The notes: generated from the letters alone by a model not told the origin. 64,000 nucleotides of DNA from Candidatus Magasanikiibacteriota bacterium (GCA_046590235.1 JBKJTY010000035.1:14722-78721), one strand, 5' to 3'. Counted from the stretch's first letter, positions 4,534-32,599 are shown. Made by a program: numbers and translations.

Positions 4534-5760
4534 ATGTTTGGTCAAAAACAAGACAACCAAATCGTCGAACCACAGCTAGATATTGCGGTAACCACTATAC
4601 CAACTGATTTTTATGCGGGTGCAAACCCAACTATCACTTTTAAGCACGTGGAAAAAGTGGTCCAGGCAAATGAGCAAGGATTGCTTACGCCCGCTGATAA
4701 AAAAGCTTTAGATAAAGCAACCGCGGTTGGAAGTGGGCAAGAACTTCATCCAGCTAATGTTCTCGGTAACCGGAAAAAGTTATTTCTCATCGGTGGAGGA
4801 TTGTTTAGTTTATTTGTGGCCGGAGCAGGGGGTTACTACTGGCTTCAAAATAAACCGACAGCTCCAACAACAAATCAAACGCCAATCGCAATCGTTCCTA
4901 CACCGGTTGACGTCGAAGTTCCTTCCACCACACCGTTTGTTGCTCCTGCTACAACTACCGAACAAATCCCTGTAGTTGTAACTAATCCAGATAGTAGTAT
5001 TGAATTTCCTGCGCTCTTGCTAAGTAAAAGTTTTGATTTAGACAATGACGGGCTAACAGATTTAGAAGAAGAGATGTATAAAAGTGATTCAGGTAATCCA
5101 GATACTGATAGTGACGGCTACCTAGATGGTAGTGAAGTGTTTCATTTATACAACCCAATCGGTAAAGAGCCTATCAAACTTATCGAATCTGAGGTAGTTA
5201 AAGAATTTACAAATCCAAGTTTTGGTTACACTCTGTATTACCCAATTAGTTGGGTAGCTGGCAATGTTGACCAGGAATATCGTGACATGCTTTTCAATTC
5301 GGTAAATGGCGAGAATGTCGAAGTGCGTGTTTTTGACAAGCAAAGCGCTATGACATTTGCAGATTGGTTTGCAGTACATGCATCTGATCAAAAATACGGT
5401 GATTTAAACGATTTTGAAACCCGTTTTGGTGACAAGGGATCCCGTCGTTATGATAAGCTGGTTTATTATTTCGCTACTCCAAATCGTGTTTTTGTATTAG
5501 TATATCATCCGACTATTGGAGCATCTACAATCAACTACGCAGCCACAATCGAAATGATGGCGCGCAGCTTTACGGTAAGCGGACAGTCGTTCGATGTTAT
5601 TCCGCTGCAAACCGCTTTAACAAGTCCTGTTACCGAAATCCCATCTGAACCAATTGGTATCACCCAAACAACCCCAGAAACGACCATAGACGACTCAGCT
5701 GCTACAACAACAGTCGCAGCAGACTCAATCGATTCAACTTCAACAAGCACAACATTATGA
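4534..5760 (+). CDS. membrane-anchored protein with a TSP3-like repeat and a C-terminal globular domain
   Basis: One TM segment, a Thr/Pro-rich linker, the motifs DLDNDGLTDLEEE and DTDSDGYLDGSE, then a ~200-aa C-terminal domain. Its stop overlaps the ybeY start. Confidence 0.45.
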   Translation: MFGQKQDNQIVEPQLDIAVTTIPTDFYAGANPTITFKHVEKVVQANEQGLLTPADKKALDKATAVGSGQELHPANVLGNRKKLFLIGGGLFSLFVAGAGGYYWLQNKPTAPTTNQTPIAIVPTPVDVEVPSTTPFVAPATTTEQIPVVVTNPDSSIEFPALLLSKSFDLDNDGLTDLEEEMYKSDSGNPDTDSDGYLDGSEVFHLYNPIGKEPIKLIESEVVKEFTNPSFGYTLYYPISWVAGNVDQEYRDMLFNSVNGENVEVRVFDKQSAMTFADWFAVHASDQKYGDLNDFETRFGDKGSRRYDKLVYYFATPNRVFVLVYHPTIGASTINYAATIEMMARSFTVSGQSFDVIPLQTALTSPVTEIPSEPIGITQTTPETTIDDSAATTTVAADSIDSTSTSTTL

Positions 5761-7995: not shown

Positions 7996-9255
7996 ATGCC
8001 TCAAGTTAAACCAGAAATTGAAGCGTTCGCAAAAATTAAAGTTGTTGGTGTTGGCGGATCTGGCGGATCAGCAGTTAACCGTATGATGGCGAGTAAAATT
8101 CGCGGTGTTGATTTTATTGTAATGAACACTGATATCCAAGCTTTGCACCACAATAACGCTCCGACTAAAATCCATATTGGTAAAACTGTTACACGTGGTT
8201 TAGGTGCAGGTATGGATCCTGAAATCGGACGCAAAGCTGCTGAAGAATCACAAAATGAAATTCGTGAAGCGCTCAAAGATAGTGATATGGTTTTCATTAC
8301 CTGCGGTATGGGTGGTGGTACAGGCACTGGAGCAGCGCCAGTTGTCGCTCAGGTCGCCAAAGAACTTGGCGCACTCACCGTAGCAGTAGTAACCAAACCA
8401 TTCTCTTTTGAAGGCCCGCAGCGTTCTACGATTGGAAATAAAGGTTGGGAAGACTTAGCAAAAAATGTAGATACGATTATCACTATTCCAAACGATCGTA
8501 TTTTGCAAATAATTGATAAAAAAACAACACTACTCGACGCGTTCAAGATTGTCGATGATATTTTACGCCAAGGTGTGCAAGGTATTTCTGAGCTCATCAC
8601 TATTCCTGGTCTTATCAACGTAGACTTTGCCGATGTTCGAACTATTATGCGCGACACCGGTTCTGCGTTAATGGGTATTGGTACGGGCAGTGGTGAAAAT
8701 CGAGCTATCGAAGCAGCGAAGGCTGCGATTTCTAGTCCGCTCCTCGAGCTTTCTATCGATGGTGCGCATGGTATTTTATTTACTATCACTGGTGGTCCTG
8801 ATCTTACCATGAACGAAGTCAGTGAAGCTGCTAAAATTATTACTTCATCAGCTTCAACTGAAGCAAAAATTATTTTTGGTGCAATCATTGATGAAAGCAT
8901 GACAGGTAGTATGCGTATCAGTGTGGTAGCTACAGGTTTTGACGAACGTCGCCCAAGTTTAGTAAAAGATGATGAAAGTTCTTCAGGTCAAACATTATTT
9001 GCTGCTGGCAAATATATGCCAAGCACCTTCCTACGTAAAGCCCAGAAAGAAGAAGAGGAAGAAGAACGTCGTTTTAAAAACTACACACAAAAAACTTCTC
9101 CACAATCACAATCTCCAGCTCAGGTAATGCAGCAGCCTCCGATGATGTCGCAACCACAACCGCAACAACAGCAGCAACAAGAAAGAACCATGCCAAAAGT
9201 TGGCGATGATGAAATTGAGATCCCAGCTTTCATTCGAAGGAAAATGGGTATATAA
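7996..9255 (+). CDS. ftsZ: cell division GTPase FtsZ
   Basis: [17 protein letters not shown] and the tubulin signature [13 protein letters not shown]. The C-terminus has a Q/P-rich linker ([17 protein letters not shown]) followed by a conserved tail ([12 protein letters not shown]). Confidence 0.9.
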
Positions 9256-11603: not shown

Positions 11604-11628
11604 AAAACCAGCCGCTCGGCTGGTTTTG
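11604..11628 (+). terminator. rho-independent terminator after pyk
   Basis: aaaaaaCCAGCCgctcGGCTGGtttt directly after the stop codon. Confidence 0.55.
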
Positions 11629-11868
11629 TCATTCACAATAAAATGTCATTCAGAGCGAAGCGTGGAATCTTCCTATTGTTCAATCTACCATTTTTACTTC
11701 ACTATCGTTCTTTTATTCTCTTACTGTTGCACAGTTTGCTTGTCACTTTCTTTATAACTAAAGGAAGGTAACCCCTGCCTGCCGGCAGGCAGGAAAGAAA
11801 GTTTCGGGGGAAAGTAAAACTCGGCTGCGGCCTCAAACAGTTACTTTCCCCCGAACCCCCTAGCGAGT
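11629..11868. repeat. Copy a of a duplicated ~230-nt structured intergenic element (R1). It carries an inserted 20-bp palindrome at 11775-11794.
   Basis: About 85% identical over ~170 nt to 21659-21830 (gtcattcacaataaaatgtcattcagagcgaagcgtggaatcttcctattgttcaat...). The 3' stem gggggaaagtaa...ttacttccccc is replaced in copy b by gggggttgctca...tgagcagcccc, a compensatory change. Confidence 0.6.
11775..11794. repeat. 20-bp perfect palindrome CCTGCCTGCCGGCAGGCAGG (mini-insertion; second copy at 19211-19230)
   Basis: Present after GTAACC in R1 copy a, but absent at the corresponding site of R1 copy b (gtaacc|aaaagaaag at about 21798-21806). Confidence 0.6.
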
Positions 11869-16312: not shown

Positions 16313-16383
16313 GCCTCTATTCTTTCCTTAGTAAGGAAACTGATGAGTCCCTGATAGTTATGAAGAGGACGAAAATAGAAGTG
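16313..16383 (+). ncRNA. hammerhead self-cleaving ribozyme, type III topology (predicted cleavage between 16322 and 16323)
   Basis: Helix III 5' strand CUCUAU (16315-16320), then UUC with cleavage predicted after it. Helix I is UUUCCUU-AGU-AAGGAAA (16323-16339). CUGAUGA is at 16340-16346. Helix II is GUCC-16 nt loop-GGAC, with G10.1-C11.1 conserved. GAAA is at 16371-16374. Helix III 3' strand is AUAGAAG. Confidence 0.6.
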
Positions 16384-16477
16384 TAATCATATAGATCAGT
16401 GAGTTGTTGTATGACGATTGACTGATCTACATGATTTTGCACTTTCACCGGCCACACGGCCGCATTGGAGGCAGCAC

Positions 16478-16657
16478 ATGTGTGAGGCAAAGGATGGTTC
16501 GTTTAGTGGCGTTTCCACACAGAGCGATCTTTCGCCTGAAGACCAGGCTGAACTCGCTAAGCTCGTTACGCCAACATCGGTCACACCGGTCAAGCCGCGC
16601 GAGCTCATCGATGCGCGCAAGCAGTGCTCGGAGCGCACGAAGCCGCCGATCTGGTAG
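16478..16657 (+). CDS. hypothetical small acidic protein (59 aa), GC-rich
   Basis: RBS GGAGG upstream of the ATG; same foreign codon usage as its neighbours. Confidence 0.4.
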   Translation: MCEAKDGSFSGVSTQSDLSPEDQAELAKLVTPTSVTPVKPRELIDARKQCSERTKPPIW

Positions 16658-16804
16658 TTCTTTTTTCCTCCCGGTCGGCCAGGTATGTGTACCTGGCCGA
16701 CCGCGGAGTTCAATCTGAACGATAAGCTATTTTTAAAAAATGGTTTACCGGTCCGATTGACCTACGACTACCATACCGGTGGTCTAAACAAAGGAGTAGT
16801 TCGC

Positions 16805-18225: not shown

Positions 18226-19209
18226 ATGAAGAAAAAATTACTTGTCGTAGGAATTATTTTAACTGCATTGCTCGCCGGGTATATAAGCCTATTTTTTATC
18301 GACACATCAAGTCAGGATATTCGCTATGGTATTAGTTTTGATCCAGATTACGCACGATATATTAATAAAGATGCAGGTAAGGCGTATATGACCACACTAA
18401 ATGATTGGCATTTTAAATTAATCCGTTTACCGGTGCACTGGGATGTTATTGAAAAAAAACAAGGTACATTTGATTTCAGCGACATCGATTGGTATGTTGA
18501 TCGAGCAAAAGATAGTGGGGCAAAAGTGATTTTGTCTATCGGTCAAAAAACACCACGCTGGCCAGAGTGTCATATTCCAACGTGGACTAAAGAATTGGAC
18601 CAGGCAGAATATATCGCTGCGGTTAAAAGCTATTTAGAGGCCGCTGTTGTGCATTACCGTGGTAATCCGGCATTAGAAATGTGGCAAGTTGAAAACGAAC
18701 CTTTTTTACATTTTGGTAACTGTCCAACAGTTACAACTGGCGATTTACATTCCGAAATTACACTCGTAAAAAAACTTGACCCAAACCATCCTACGCTTGT
18801 AGGGGACAGCGGTGAACTAAGTAGCTGGCTGGTAACCGGTACTGCGGGAGATTATTTTGGTACAACTGTATACCGCTTGGTTTACAATAAATACTTTGGC
18901 TACCTTAATTATGATTTCCTTCCTGCCGCATTCTACCGTTTAAAGCTATGGTTAGTAGGTAGAGAACCATCAAAAGCCTTCTTGTTGGAGTTGCAAGCGG
19001 AACCTTGGCTCACTGAAAAGCCCTTTAAAGAAGTTGCGCTTGAGGAGCAATATCAATCAATGAATTTGAATCGTTTAGAAAACAACATTTCCTACGCGCA
19101 ACAGATTGGTTTAAGCCGGGTATATCTCTGGGGTGCGGAGTGGTGGTATTGGCTTTTGGAACAAGGTATTCATGATATTCCGGATTATGTAAAAACTCTC
19201 CCCAAGTAA
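18226..19209 (+). CDS. membrane-anchored TIM-barrel glycoside hydrolase (GH5-like NEP catalytic motif)
   Basis: N-terminal TM segment. The sequence reads HWDVIE...KVILSIGQKTPRWP...EMWQVENEP, where the ENEP motif is typical of clan GH-A acid/base sites. Confidence 0.45.
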   Translation: MKKKLLVVGIILTALLAGYISLFFIDTSSQDIRYGISFDPDYARYINKDAGKAYMTTLNDWHFKLIRLPVHWDVIEKKQGTFDFSDIDWYVDRAKDSGAKVILSIGQKTPRWPECHIPTWTKELDQAEYIAAVKSYLEAAVVHYRGNPALEMWQVENEPFLHFGNCPTVTTGDLHSEITLVKKLDPNHPTLVGDSGELSSWLVTGTAGDYFGTTVYRLVYNKYFGYLNYDFLPAAFYRLKLWLVGREPSKAFLLELQAEPWLTEKPFKEVALEEQYQSMNLNRLENNISYAQQIGLSRVYLWGAEWWYWLLEQGIHDIPDYVKTLPK

Positions 19210-19210
19210 C

Positions 19211-19230
19211 CCTGCCTGCCGGCAGGCAGG
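19211..19230. repeat. second copy of the 20-bp palindrome CCTGCCTGCCGGCAGGCAGG
   Basis: An exact copy of 11775-11794, here immediately after GTAAC of the hydrolase stop codon context. Confidence 0.6.
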
Positions 19231-19276
19231 CGTTGACTTCTTTAAGTATTTAAGCTATACTGAAGAAGCTTTAAAA

Positions 19277-19350
19277 GCGCACTTAGCTCAGTTGGTTAGA
19301 GCATCTCGTTTACACCGAGAGGGTCGAGGGTTCGAATCCCCCAGTGCGCA
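19277..19350 (+). tRNA. tRNA-Val (anticodon TAC)
   Basis: Acceptor stem GCGCACT/AGTGCGC, D-arm GCTC..GAGC, anticodon stem TCTCG/CGAGA with loop TTTACAC, T-loop TTCGAAT. No CCA is encoded. There is one A-C mismatch in the T-stem. Confidence 0.8.
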
Positions 19351-19356
19351 CGTATG

Positions 19357-19389
19357 AAAATAGCAGCTTAACGCTGTTGTTTTTTTATT
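19357..19389 (+). terminator. terminator module T (left direct repeat of the islet)
   Basis: aaaatAGCAGCttaacGCTGTTgttttttt; an almost identical copy is at 21619-21648 and a variant at 20604-20634. Confidence 0.55.
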
Positions 19390-19463
19390 CCTACTTCATT
19401 CGAGCACCATGTCGTGCACAATAAAAACACATTCGTTTAATCGAGTGTGTTTTGTTGTGTGTA

Positions 19464-19492
19464 TTGACAAAATTGCATTTTATTGCTATACT
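19464..19492 (+). promoter_or_regulatory. promoter TTGACA-N17-TATACT for cassette A
   Basis: TTGACA at 19464-19469, TATACT at 19487-19492. Confidence 0.5.
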
Positions 19493-19554
19493 ATGCCGTT
19501 GGGATTAATTTCTCAACACAACCATAAACGTTTTTTACAACCCAAGGAGTAGTG

Positions 19555-20412
19555 ATGGAAAAGGTGCGTGCCGTAGCGGTTCTGTTGTTCATGTTTACAA
19601 CCTCCAACCTTGCCATCGCGGCAGAGAAAGAGCTCTCGATTCCCAAGGATCAGCTAGCCCTGCTCGACAAGGCCAGGAAGGCCCTCGTCAAGATCGCCGC
19701 CAAGAGCGACCGTGCGAAAGGGTTGTTGGCTTTGTACAACAACCACGCAGTTCCGGCCCTTACCGATAGCGACCAGGTTCGGATCGTTTCCATCCCGAAG
19801 GTGGTGCCGTACTTTTTTGTGGCGGCGAACCCGCGGGTTGAGACGCAAGTCTCGAATGAGGGTGGAACATTCGCCTATTTTAACTGTACTGAACAGCCGA
19901 GCTTGCTCTTGAAGAATTTCCCGACTGTCTCAGAAACGGTCCATGGCATTATGCTGGCCCACGAGTTGGTGCATGCTGAGGACTGCCTGTTCGGAGGCGA
20001 GGGGGCAAATAAACAGCATGATGATGCTTGGTTGATCGGCGAATTGCATGCGCACAACACTGTCTGGATGCTGCTTAACGACATCTCCGACGGAGGTTGG
20101 AATAAGGTTGTGACAGGTTCTCTCCGTCGGCGAATGCAGATGATGAGCGCCGGCCAGGACAACCCGAAAGCAATGGTCTTCGGATATTCTACAGATGATA
20201 TCGTGAGCATTGAAAAAATGTTCGGTGCCCAAGATGATGTCGCAATCGGCGCCTTGATTGCCCAACTCCAGGTTGATGTGAACATGCTCAAAATCGCGCT
20301 CAATACACCTGGCAGCGGCGTGCTCTACGACGTGTCTCCTGAACTGGCAGAAAATCAGTTGAGGTTAGTCAAAGCGTTCTACAAAGAGAACGAACAAGCT
20401 ATTCAGCAGTAG
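19555..20412 (+). CDS. secreted protein with an HExxH-like motif (possible metallopeptidase-like), GC-rich cassette A
   Basis: RBS AAGGAG; signal peptide (AVAVLLFMFTTSNLAIAAE); motif AHELVHAED; GC-rich codon usage. The ORF track's first M is a GTG at 19552. Confidence 0.5.
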   Translation: MEKVRAVAVLLFMFTTSNLAIAAEKELSIPKDQLALLDKARKALVKIAAKSDRAKGLLALYNNHAVPALTDSDQVRIVSIPKVVPYFFVAANPRVETQVSNEGGTFAYFNCTEQPSLLLKNFPTVSETVHGIMLAHELVHAEDCLFGGEGANKQHDDAWLIGELHAHNTVWMLLNDISDGGWNKVVTGSLRRRMQMMSAGQDNPKAMVFGYSTDDIVSIEKMFGAQDDVAIGALIAQLQVDVNMLKIALNTPGSGVLYDVSPELAENQLRLVKAFYKENEQAIQQ

Positions 20413-20430
20413 CGGTTTCTTCGCAAACCG

Positions 20431-20634
20431 CCACGGTCCCGGATACTCAGGGGATCGTGGCGAGTAGGGTCAAAAAACCACCTACAAACTCACGAAGTTT
20501 TCAAGCGATTGGAAATTTCATGAGTAGGTGGTTTTTTAATTCCAACCACCGCTTTATTTCTCTAACCATGGTGTTCCATCGAGCACCCACGTCGTGCACA
20601 CATGAAAATAACAGTGTTTAGCTGTTATTTTTTT
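20431..20634 (+). repeat. structured 3' repeat unit of cassette A (modules S1 stem-loop, S2 long hairpin, M motif, T terminator)
   Basis: S1 is ccacggtccc...gggatcgtgg. S2 is aaaaaaccacctac-38 nt-gtaggtggtttttt. M is ggtgttccatcgagcacccacgtcgtgcaca. T is aaaataacagtgtttagctgttattttttt. All four are repeated after cassette B. Confidence 0.55.
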
Positions 20635-20656
20635 GTCTTCACACAAGCTTCAATCC

Positions 20657-20685
20657 TTGACAATGGATCAAAAATTAATTACACT
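20657..20685 (+). promoter_or_regulatory. promoter TTGACA-N17-TACACT for cassette B
   Basis: TTGACA at 20657-20662, TACACT at 20680-20685. Confidence 0.45.
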
Positions 20686-20734
20686 GTCACAGCCCTTTTC
20701 CAATGAAACCTTCTATCCCTTGGAGAAATAAACG

Positions 20735-21424
20735 ATGCGTGCAATTATTTTCACGATCTTCATTGCTGCTCTGCAGCCGTTGGGTGAGCAGCCTATAAAA
20801 TCACAAGCACCTTTAGCGGAAGAAAAGACAGCCTCTTTGGCTTGTAAGAACGGTCAGGAAGGGCTCAAGAACACGAAAGGATCGCCGTGGTGGTGGATTA
20901 ATAAGATCAATCGGAATTGCGACGCAGAAGCAAGTCGTGAAGCCTACCGTGCAAACTGGGAGCGTTTTCGGACAACTTTCCCAGTTGCGGCAGCTTGGAT
21001 GGCTATGCAGTTAGACTATGTAGTCGACGCAACAATCATCCAGAAAGACCTGTTGTCAGGCTTCGTAACAAACGTAAACTTTGATTCTGACGCAATTGAT
21101 CCAGAAATGGCACAAAAAATACTCGAAAGATTAAAGGGTTATGGTGCCATAATTTCTGCCGAATCAAAACCAATCATTGTGACGGTAACCAGCGTGTTCG
21201 ACAAGCCGGATTGGTCAGAAGCAGACAAGTACCGATACGTCTTTGCCTGCAAGTTTTCTCAAGTGGTGATGGAGTATGGAGCCTTCAAGGTAATTGCTGA
21301 TGCCGCCGATGAAGTCGTAGTGCCAGACATTTACATGAAAATGGGAGATTGTCACGAGTTAATGACAGTCATCCCCGAGTTGGTAGAAAATATCGTGGCT
21401 GAATACCGCAAGCAGAACAAATGA
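20735..21424 (+). CDS. secreted hypothetical protein, GC-rich cassette B
   Basis: Signal peptide MRAIIFTIFIAALQP; GC-rich; no recognisable motif. Confidence 0.5.
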   Translation: MRAIIFTIFIAALQPLGEQPIKSQAPLAEEKTASLACKNGQEGLKNTKGSPWWWINKINRNCDAEASREAYRANWERFRTTFPVAAAWMAMQLDYVVDATIIQKDLLSGFVTNVNFDSDAIDPEMAQKILERLKGYGAIISAESKPIIVTVTSVFDKPDWSEADKYRYVFACKFSQVVMEYGAFKVIADAADEVVVPDIYMKMGDCHELMTVIPELVENIVAEYRKQNK

Positions 21425-21438
21425 ACATGTCAAAAAGT

Positions 21439-21648
21439 CACCGCGATCCCGGATACTCTGGGGGTCGTGGTGGGAGCTAAAAAACCACCTACAAACTCAT
21501 AAGTTTTTCAAGTAATTGGAAACTTCATGAGTAGGTGGTTTTTTATTTCAACACTTCCAACCATCGCCTAATCTCAACAACCACGGTGTTCCATCGAGCA
21601 CCCACGTCGTGCACATATAAAATAGCAGCTTAATGCTGTTGTTTTTTT
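21439..21648 (+). repeat. structured 3' repeat unit of cassette B (S1, S2, M, T). The T copy is the right direct repeat of the islet.
   Basis: Modules are colinear with 20431-20634. The S1 stem has compensatory changes (caccgcgatccc/ggggtcgtggtg versus ccacggtccc/gggatcgtgg). Confidence 0.55.
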
Positions 21649-21658
21649 ATACCCACAA

Positions 21659-21870
21659 GGTGTCACTCGCAATAAAATGTCATCCAGAGCGGAGCGTGGG
21701 ATCTTCCTATTATTCAATTTTACTTCGCTATCGTTCTTTCTTATTTTTCACTCTTGCACAGTCCGCTTGTCACTTTTCTTTGTAACCAAAGCAAAGTAAC
21801 CAAAAGAAAGTTTCGGGGGTTGCTCAGACTCGCCTCGGCTCAGACAGTGAGCAGCCCCAGAACCCCAACT
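21659..21870. repeat. copy b of structured element R1 (lacks the 20-bp palindrome)
   Basis: Aligns with 11629-11868 and carries the compensatory 3' stem. Confidence 0.6.
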
Positions 21871-21933
21871 CCTCGGGCTGTTTTATTATTCTTACTCATG
21901 GTATAATTAAGTAATATTTAATTATCTGAATGG

Positions 21934-32524: not shown

Positions 32525-32599
32525 TGTCATTCCCGCGCAGGCGGGAATCCAGTATACCAACGATATGTGTCCTGGATTCCCGCCTACGCGGGAATGACA
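32525..32599. terminator. large inverted repeat (28-nt arms, each with an internal palindrome); bidirectional terminator/cruciform between convergent genes
   Basis: tgtcattcccgcgcaggcgggaatccag ... ctggattcccgcctacgcgggaatgaca. Confidence 0.55.

Follow-up and report, generated by a model that had tools for sequence, protein, structure and literature searches.

A 20-bp palindromic insertion unit and its association with small GIY-YIG nuclease genes at tRNA loci

Two palindrome copies and their empty sites

We analyzed a 64,000-nt stretch of a Candidatus Magasanikiibacteriota bacterium genome (GCA_046590235.1 JBKJTY010000035.1:14722-78721), which we refer to in its entirety as the window. Its gene content and the homologs of its proteins point to Patescibacteria, close to Candidatus Magasanikbacteria. 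The window has a G+C content of 41% and contains two exact copies of a perfect 20-bp palindrome, CCTGCCTGCCGGCAGGCAGG (hereafter the 20-mer), to which no strand is assigned: copy 1 at 11774-11793 and copy 2 at 19211-19230. Zero occurrences are expected by chance, as judged from 100 shuffles of the window, and no further copy was found in the window with up to three mismatches. As single-stranded DNA, the 20-mer is predicted to fold into an 8-bp stem with a CCGG loop (-8 kcal/mol). An earlier note on this DNA had placed copy 2 correctly and copy 1 a single nucleotide too high, at 11775-11794.

Copy 1 is intergenic, lying between convergent pyruvate kinase and serine hydroxymethyltransferase genes, and is contained within a repeat of about 240 nt that we call R1 (copy a, 11627-11865, plus strand). 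A GTCATTC..GAATC module opens R1 copy a, and a long hairpin (11803-11855) closes it. R1 has just one other copy (copy b, 21661-21875, plus strand), which is approximately 80% identical to copy a and lacks the palindrome. Alignment of the two shows that copy a reads GTAACC, palindrome, AAAGAAAG, while in copy b GTAACC is followed directly by AAAAGAAAG, with the empty junction at 21801/21802 matching the insertion point of copy 1. The contrast between a filled and an empty R1 that the earlier note had drawn is thus correct, and this paralog is the sole source of an empty site for copy 1. Neither R1 copy nor the palindrome matches an Rfam family at gathering thresholds, and the other matches were at chance level.

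Copy 2 occupies the gap between a GH5-like glycoside hydrolase gene (18226-19209, plus strand) and an intact tRNA-Val(TAC) gene (19277-19351, plus strand). It starts 1 nt past the TAA stop codon of the former and ends 2 nt ahead of the -35 box of the sigma-70-like tRNA-Val promoter TTGACT-17-TATACT (19233-19261, plus strand), 46 nt upstream of the tRNA. Using the GH5-like gene as an anchor for retrieving orthologous loci, we obtained syntenic contigs from three Magasanikbacteria-like relatives whose GH5-like proteins are 87%, 81%, and 62% identical to that of the window (L158, L159, and L160-L162; L numbers denote individual retrieved loci). All three relatives keep the stop codon, the promoter that the palindrome abuts, and the tRNA, and in all three the palindrome is absent. 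The window reads AAGTAAC, palindrome, CGTTGACTT, whereas AAGTAGC directly precedes CGTTGACTT in the 87% relative, AAGTAAAC directly precedes CGTTGACTT in the 81% relative, and AAGTAATC directly precedes CATTGACTT in the 62% relative. Relative to these orthologs the insert is exactly 20 bp long and is not accompanied by a target-site duplication. The filled site was also recovered in the independent Logan assembly of SRR31159418 (contig L157). The earlier note had proposed that the palindrome is gained or lost as a unit, a proposal now borne out by both paralogous and orthologous empty sites and by clean 20-bp insertions in unrelated contexts; occupancy of the orthologous positions in every relative, which it had named, along with a genome-wide count of only two, as evidence against mobility, is not what the relatives display.

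Insertion behavior and spread of the 20-mer

The unit is exactly 20 bp long, and it enters DNA without a target-site duplication and without a sequence-specific target. In viral contigs, we counted 53 unique occurrences of the 16-bp core, of which 40 are bounded by the exact CC..GG of the 20-mer and 10 are one-mismatch variants of it. Palindromy ends at 20 bp in 107 of 166 unique sites, and a 22-bp form with A..T flanks accounts for 24% of sites. We rejected the possibility that the copies are snap-back products of variable length, as CC..GG surrounds the 16-bp core in 75% of cases and one-mismatch variants make up most of the remainder. Point-mutated, decayed copies of the 20-mer are also present. 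The flanks of the 20-mer are unrelated between loci, and positions -1 to -8 are heterogeneous apart from an A/G bias at -1, with no conserved flank and no GTAG head. The GTAAC(C) that the earlier note had seen directly before the palindrome does precede both window copies, but elsewhere TAAC occurs in only 4 of 328 flanks, and comparison with the relatives shows that GTAA at copy 2 belongs to AAG-TAA, the last Lys codon and the stop. The proposed GTAAC^C target preference is therefore a coincidence.

The contexts in which the 20-mer is found are diverse. Pseudo-copies of tRNA genes carry it as a clean insertion relative to the intact copy (L038, L107, L119, and L153), and tandem-repeat units with the insert stand beside intact units (L005, L006, L064, and L102). 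It also sits in the loops or centers of other hairpins (L020, L068, L080, and L114) and is nested in itself, one base off center (L019 and L043). At L078, a one-mismatch variant (19/20 nt) replaces 19 nt of a pseudo-tRNA. Of 127 occurrences, 54 are intergenic, 48 lie near the edges of open reading frames (ORFs) or in short ORFs, and 25 are spanned by an ORF. In two viral tRNA-Met genes (L146, 2239-2330; L123, ~8570-8660), the variable loop holds the 20-mer and forms a class-II-like long arm; ARAGORN still calls the L146 gene a tRNA. These empty sites and clean insertions in many contexts agree with the earlier suggestion of a very small, REP-like mobile element.

Three further descriptions of the element were tried and rejected. 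Hairpin-loop contexts at solo sites, that is, copies with no nuclease gene nearby, are enriched 3- to 5-fold and make up 10-19% of sites, relative to controls at random positions that include coding DNA; given this size and the confounding intergenic bias, hairpin-loop targeting was discarded as a general rule for solo copies. Miniature inverted-repeat transposable elements (MITEs) have terminal inverted repeats and target-site duplications and are 50-500 bp long. The 20-mer is not a MITE, as no filled/empty pair has a target-site duplication and the 20-bp unit has no internal sequence. It is not an intrinsic terminator either, since a terminator scan calls neither window copy, a T-run is absent, and the orthologous sites are empty.

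Within conserved proteins, the 20-mer is always in frame and is read as LPAGRQ, in the same frame, which is free of Cys, in seven of seven cases. The carriers are FtsK, GatB, ribosomal protein S6, an RfbB-like dehydratase, a PMT-type glycosyltransferase, and two membrane proteins, and the inserts add 4 to 7 amino acids. In GatB, the empty allele of homologs that are 95% and 89% identical reads GAT GAC GGT CAA ACT GTC TAT, while the filled allele (L105) reads GAT GA(C CTG CCT GCC GGC AGG CAG G)TG GTT TAT, with the insert in parentheses. Compared with the 95%-identical homolog, L105 has gained 20 bp and lost about 8 nt, a net change of +12 nt that converts DDGQTVY to DDLPAGRQVVY. This filled/empty pair therefore rules out an artifact, and the loss of about 8 nt shows that some events involve a processed break. 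Comparison of GatB with solved structures is uninformative: the loop varies, and Thermotoga maritima GatB natively has GRQ there.

To assess the distribution of the element, we scanned 185,579 species-representative genomes for exact matches, which yielded at least 120 stretches. The same 20-mer is thus present in at least 120 species representatives, against a chance estimate of fewer than about 5, and far fewer in AT-rich genomes. Among the matches listed, most are in AT-rich genomes, and the hosts include many named lineages of Patescibacteria as well as Bacteroidota, Omnitrophota, Planctomycetota, Thermodesulfovibrionales, Verrucomicrobia, Elusimicrobia, and Ignavibacteria; no cyanobacterial genome is among them. 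Cultured Bacteroidota are represented by Winogradskyella echinorum, Flagellimonas yonaguniensis, Longitalea luteola, Flavivirga sp., Aquiflexum lacus, Agriterribacter humi, and Aestuariivivens sediminis. A further 35 viral stretches came from IMG/VR. Among them is a phage contig of 29.5 kb that has six or more copies (L142/L149/L150), in which Pfam gave no clue to an enzyme and matched only a terminase and an adaptor protein. The labels of some co-assembly records of metagenome-assembled genomes (MAGs), given as "MAG TPA_asm: uncultured Gammaproteobacteria," are unreliable and look wrong, so phyla were not counted from them. L105, for instance, is labeled Gammaproteobacteria, and its GatB is 70-95% identical to proteins of Shapirobacteria/Patescibacteria. 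The end of viral contig L155 (3926-4142) is a tandem array of a 21-nt variant unit, CCATGCCTACCGGCAGGCAGG, with no fewer than 10 copies; the array reflects either tandem amplification or an end-of-contig assembly effect.

Other palindromes are shared in a similar manner. A second perfect palindrome, TCCGCCAGCTGGCGGA, occurs at eight sites in seven unrelated loci (L012, L016, L017, L033, L041, L109, and L111) with unrelated flanks, and at L017 it lies 8 nt from the 20-mer. Similarly, TCCGCCTSAGGCGGA (three loci) and CCGAACGGGTACGTTCGG (L040 and L073) are common to unrelated genomes. There seems to be a wider family of cross-phylum palindromes. In the searchable literature, we found nothing that mentions the 20-mer, its 14- and 16-nt cores, TCCGCCAGCTGGCGGA, or LPAGRQ.

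Association with GIY-YIG mini-nuclease genes

The first signs of a partner gene came from loci in which the 20-mer lies in the D-arm of a 5' partial tRNA copy, followed by a GIY-YIG ORF of about 80 amino acids and then by the intact tRNA (L038, L107, L119, L153, and L100). Among the loci ascertained through the palindrome, six of nine GIY-YIG ORFs are within 200 nt of it. We avoided this ascertainment bias by assembling a second set in which metagenome contigs were searched by protein alignment alone. Of 600 pattern matches, 517 were confirmed, and the best 80 loci were used, comprising 84 ORFs in 79 clusters at 90% identity. A tRNA gene is present at 69 of the 80 loci. The palindrome, with up to two mismatches, lies within about 110 nt of the nuclease gene at 51 of the 80 (64%), with 42 copies upstream and 12 downstream, and several further loci carry indel variants of it. 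Where a copy lies upstream and within 400 nt, its end is in most cases 11-50 nt ahead of the start codon. In 45 of the 51 loci, the gene-strand base at -1 of the palindrome is A. Palindrome presence also follows protein similarity: nearest-neighbor concordance is 0.76, compared with 0.54 when permuted, and 0 of 2,000 permutations reach the observed value. The association between the palindrome and the nuclease genes is therefore an observation, while the chemistry by which the palindrome may be mobilized is a matter of interpretation. The association also gives substance to the nuclease tie that the earlier note had raised as a possibility.

The usual layout consists of a 5' tRNA pseudo-copy (positions 1 to about 30-40), the ORF, and an intact tRNA that often overlaps the end of the ORF. 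The palindrome sits cleanly inside the pseudo-copy at positions 9/10, 14/15, or 20-23, which are the strand boundaries of the D-stem. A mirror layout also exists, in which the intact tRNA is followed by the ORF and a 3' pseudo-copy, and here the palindrome is found at the boundary of the T-arm or the anticodon stem. In most of the 26 metagenome cassettes examined, the left match to the tRNA ends where the right match begins. The nuclease gene is not itself inserted in the palindrome, and 11-50 nt of contiguous tRNA-derived sequence usually separate the two. Because the palindrome positions differ between loci and the flanking tRNA is contiguous, the cassette palindromes represent independent insertions rather than an inherited leader. 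Most cassettes bear one palindrome; palindromes on both sides were found at L175, L192, and L232, and tandem cassettes at L187 and L245. The corresponding D-loop site of L040 is occupied by another GC-rich palindrome.

The partner protein is a bare GIY-YIG domain (PF01541, E = 8e-14 to 4e-17). Its nearest solved relatives by phmmer are the UPF0213 proteins 1ywl and 1zg2 (EF2693 and BH0048), and as a stand-alone GIY-YIG catalytic domain of about 80 amino acids it qualifies for the UPF0213/YhbQ family, which is characterized by such a domain of about 80-100 amino acids. NCBIfam has no model specific to it, and we found nothing relevant in the searchable literature on GIY-YIG proteins with a tRNA and a palindrome or on UPF0213/YhbQ/COG2827. 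The earlier note had also pointed to restriction-modification systems, an idea to which nothing in the retrieved loci points: the partner is a stand-alone UPF0213-type domain, no methyltransferase context was seen, and no restriction-modification genes were seen beside palindrome copies save for one hsdS gene that is interrupted by a cassette. In that case (L061, 2751-4892), the palindrome and then an in-frame GIY-YIG domain lie between the two Methylase_S stretches of hsdS. In a Saccharibacteria MAG (L094, 4758-5042), a mini-gene of the same GIY-YIG family lies within an apparent 23S rRNA gene, and the palindrome is not beside it.

No GIY-YIG gene or remnant was detected in the 64-kb window, even at E <= 10 with filters off, and both window copies are therefore solo copies. 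Taken together, we are highly confident that the palindrome is a real, discrete, and horizontally spread insertion unit that is partnered with a GIY-YIG gene family.

A second kind of tRNA-end insertion is found at the 3' ends of tRNA-Val at L040 and tRNA-Gln at L075. The last 17-20 nt or so of the tRNA are duplicated around a GC-rich, hairpin-rich insert of 60-130 nt, which at L040 has the 20-mer at its center.

Known elements, interpretation, and other insertions in the window

Among repetitive extragenic palindromic (REP) sequences, REPINs have been described as nonautonomous miniature mobile DNA (PMC3116915). The 20-mer resembles the REP/REPIN system and its REP-associated tyrosine transposases (RAYTs) in that short GC-rich palindromes, here of a length that falls within the 20-40 bp typical of REPs, are dispersed as solo copies that far outnumber the gene-linked ones, and in that the gene of the presumed mobilizing enzyme is flanked by copies. 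The two differ in several respects. The partner is a GIY-YIG nuclease (PF01541, UPF0213 type) rather than an IS200/IS605-like HUH transposase and its gene is embedded in tRNA genes, while the 20-mer is a perfect palindrome of merely 20 bp that lacks the GTAG head and has an apparently low copy number. It is identical across phyla and occurs also inside protein genes, whereas REPs are species specific and extragenic. The reading we favor is that a GIY-YIG mini-nuclease and a 20-bp palindrome form a REP/RAYT-like partnership, of which we found no account in the searchable literature.

Of the very small mobile repeats described so far, the closest are cyanobacterial small dispersed repeats (SDRs). 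SDR4-6 of heterocystous cyanobacteria, attributed to Elhai and colleagues (2008), are reportedly very small repeats (21-27 nt) that are thought to be mobile, and we know of no enzyme, associated nuclease gene, or cross-phylum spread for them. SDR5 inserts precisely after nucleotide 3 and before nucleotide 4 of the palindrome HIP1 (PMC4390886). The 20-mer shares with SDRs the very small size, the precise insertion, and the nesting in other repeats, but SDRs are said to have other sequences and to be limited to a few cyanobacteria, whereas the 20-mer has no fixed target and is found in many phyla and phages. Larger elements show comparable behavior. The Rickettsia palindromic elements, attributed to Ogata and colleagues (2000), are said to be 100-150 bp long and restricted to their genus, and to our knowledge they have no partner gene. 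The GC clusters of yeast mitochondrial DNA and the hairpin elements of fungal and sponge mitochondria are GC-rich palindromic mini-insertions in AT-rich genomes that are polymorphic between strains and sometimes lie in genes. Both groups have in-frame or hairpin behavior in common with the 20-mer at a larger size; the mitochondrial elements differ in being organellar and longer, with family-specific sequences and, in some cases, target duplications. We know of no described link between mitochondrial GC clusters and a GIY-YIG mini-gene. On the nuclease side, a precedent is SegB of phage T4, a GIY-YIG endonuclease that promotes its own inheritance and whose recognition motif is a conserved tRNA stem-loop, TpsiC (PMC2330249). 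SegB likewise has its gene among tRNA genes, but it is larger, with a DNA-binding part, and has neither a partner palindrome nor a partial tRNA duplication, whereas the partner described here is a catalytic domain of about 80 amino acids only.

We lean, if only slightly, toward a nuclease-driven model in which the 20-bp palindrome is the dispersed, noncoding partner of the GIY-YIG nuclease family in tRNA genes, itself horizontally spread. The nuclease would cut hairpins or cruciforms at stem boundaries, directed by structure, and excision or copying would be exact because the base of the stem of a perfect palindrome is also the boundary of the element. The same cutting would open recipient sites, chiefly in cis, where the tRNA pseudo-copy is dispensable, and at times at other genomic positions. 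Host repair or ligation would then join the hairpin or duplex to the broken ends, now and then with the loss of a few nucleotides. Insertions into a functional tRNA would be purged, and those elsewhere would become solo copies such as the two in the window. Identity across phyla would be kept by joint transfer of the palindrome and the gene cassette and by a loss of mobility in imperfect copies, with selection sparing copies where they are tolerated, namely, in intergenic DNA, loops, pseudo-tRNAs, tRNA variable loops, and protein loops (as LPAGRQ).

Several points weigh against this model. The link to the nuclease is one of association; about 93% of the palindrome-ascertained copies have no GIY-YIG gene in the 8 kb retrieved, and the window has none. 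A hydrolytic nuclease is unable to reseal DNA, so that host functions must be assumed, and a purely structure-specific mechanism leaves the dominance of one sequence unexplained. Other palindromes act alike, as illustrated by TCCGCCAGCTGGCGGA with its eight sites in seven loci and by the different palindrome in the L040 D-loop site. At solo sites, the enrichment of hairpin loops is just 3- to 5-fold (10-19% of sites), and A at -1 is weaker, at 42%. Finally, the adjoining intact tRNA keeps the same stems uninterrupted, which needs purifying selection as an explanation.

An alternative is that the palindrome is generic filler, captured at any double-strand break by host end joining or templated repair, with its enrichment near GIY-YIG genes arising from breaks made by nucleases or hairpins and having no specific tie to the sequence. 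The absence of a target consensus, the small deletions at some junctions, the nesting of the palindrome near its own center and in the centers of other palindromes, and the similar behavior of other palindromes all fit such an origin. Filler, however, would vary between genomes and provides no source for an identical cross-phylum 20-mer, and it does not account for the recurrence of one 20-mer at 64% of nuclease loci that were sampled independently and that differ in metagenome and tRNA species, or for a palindrome presence that tracks nuclease phylogeny. We consider this explanation unlikely. Solo copies could instead be remnants, analogous to solo long terminal repeats, that are left when recombination between two flanking palindromes deletes a GIY-YIG cassette, and the two-sided palindromes and tandem cassettes (L175, L192, and L232; L187 and L245) are what this would require. 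Such deletion should leave traces of the tRNA genes in which cassettes sit and which they turn into pseudo-copies, but the flanks of window copy 2 and of the GatB, FtsK, and S6 insertions match an uninterrupted empty site or gene with no tRNA fragment, and most cassettes bear a single palindrome; we regard this origin as quite improbable.

The abutted ends or footprint of a larger transposon with terminal inverted repeats, CCTGCCTGCC...GGCAGGCAGG, would also look like a perfect palindrome. Loci bearing the palindrome, 1.24 Mb in all, contain 52 half-sites that are not part of a full copy, but nearly all of them are decayed full palindromes, tandem variants, or overlaps, none was seen to bound a larger element, and a target-site duplication is absent, which makes this origin very improbable. 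Equally little probability attaches to a host-functional element, such as a terminator, insulator, protein-binding site, or restriction/methylation site, that arose by convergence or is selected in place. As might be expected of such an element, the 20-mer forms a GC-rich hairpin within AT-rich surroundings and includes GCCGGC and CCGG, and copy 2 separates the end of a gene from a promoter. Nevertheless, it is not called a terminator and lacks a T-run, the orthologous sites of close relatives are empty, and copies are also found in protein-coding genes, pseudo-tRNAs, and tandem repeats; moreover, convergence is not expected to produce identity over 20 bases across phyla, and the hsdS gene interrupted by a cassette is the only restriction-modification gene seen to adjoin a copy. 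A synthetic palindromic linker introduced in sequencing, library preparation, or assembly would be low in copy number, sporadic, and identical in many unrelated assemblies, as the 20-mer is. Yet gene insertions keep the reading frame (the frame is identical in seven of seven, and in one of them an 8-nt deletion compensates), mutated copies exist, genomes of cultured isolates and assemblies from many projects carry the 20-mer, an independent assembler reproduces copy 2, and placement beside one gene family is nonrandom. The probability of an artifact is accordingly close to nil.

Extending the nuclease-driven model, we tentatively propose, as something short of probable, a new kind of two-component selfish DNA: a gene for an ~80-amino-acid GIY-YIG protein that colonizes tRNA genes of phages and of many bacterial phyla, together with a cognate 20-bp palindrome mobilized through cuts at the hairpin base and host resealing. 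If true, this would be the smallest known autonomous-plus-nonautonomous transposable system, and a new route of DNA mobility in which a nuclease-only enzyme with its 20-bp hairpin takes the place of a transposase with long ends, and it would provide a natural function for the widespread, uncharacterized UPF0213/YhbQ family. It would write inserts of 4-7 amino acids into essential proteins and hairpins into tRNA genes, showing how identical short inserts reach both across phyla, and would explain the GC-rich palindromes in uncultured bacteria (candidate phyla radiation/Patescibacteria and Omnitrophota) and in Bacteroidota, along with spurious ...LPAGRQ... ORFs. Other cross-phylum palindromes such as TCCGCCAGCTGGCGGA would be further members, and the two window copies would be selfish insertions of recent date, not regulatory elements. 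In practical terms, the palindrome marks horizontal transfer and strain-level polymorphism, and the nuclease might serve as a compact structure-specific tool.

Several other features of the window and its relatives are also suggestive of small insertions. At ~5030-5062, the 87% relative (L158) has another GC-rich hairpin insert, CGCCCGACTTCGCGTAAAGCTACGTCGGACAAT, that separates the tRNA-Val gene from its promoter; neither the window nor L159 contains this insert. Conversely, a GC-rich segment of about 330 nt in the window (16376-16705) is missing from syntenic L158; it includes most of a 95-amino-acid ORF (16431-16718), ends in a hairpin with a 14-bp stem, CGGTCGGCCAGGTATGTGTACCTGGCCGACCG (16672-16703), and may be another small insertion. 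The region downstream of tRNA-Val (19352-21660) contains two modules of about 1 kb with one ORF each (19552-20412 and 20735-21424), which have no Pfam match and are not homologous to each other. Both modules end in the same series of repeats, namely, D6, the terminator-like D2, D3 containing TCGAGCACCCACGTCGTGCACA, and the terminator-like D1, and a third, shorter copy of the motif is found at ~19401-19421. The region looks like a serial cassette insertion beside a tRNA.

The terminal hairpin of R1 (11803-11855 in copy a and 21812-21860 in copy b) differs between the two copies yet stays paired, with arms GGGGGAAAGTAA/TTACTTTCCCCC versus GGGGGTTGCTCA/TGAGCAGCCCC. Because the arms have diverged while remaining paired, the sequences suggest that the hairpin itself is under constraint. 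At 32525-32599, the window carries an inverted pair of hairpins of the GTCATTCCCGCG(N)AGGCGGGAATCC type, with 33-nt arms that are 91% complementary and 9 nt apart, which we take to belong to the GC-rich GTCATT...GAATC family of many environmental bacteria. The module at the start of R1, GTCATTCAGAGCGAAGCGTGGAATC (11646-11670), is related to these GTCATT...GAATC hairpins.

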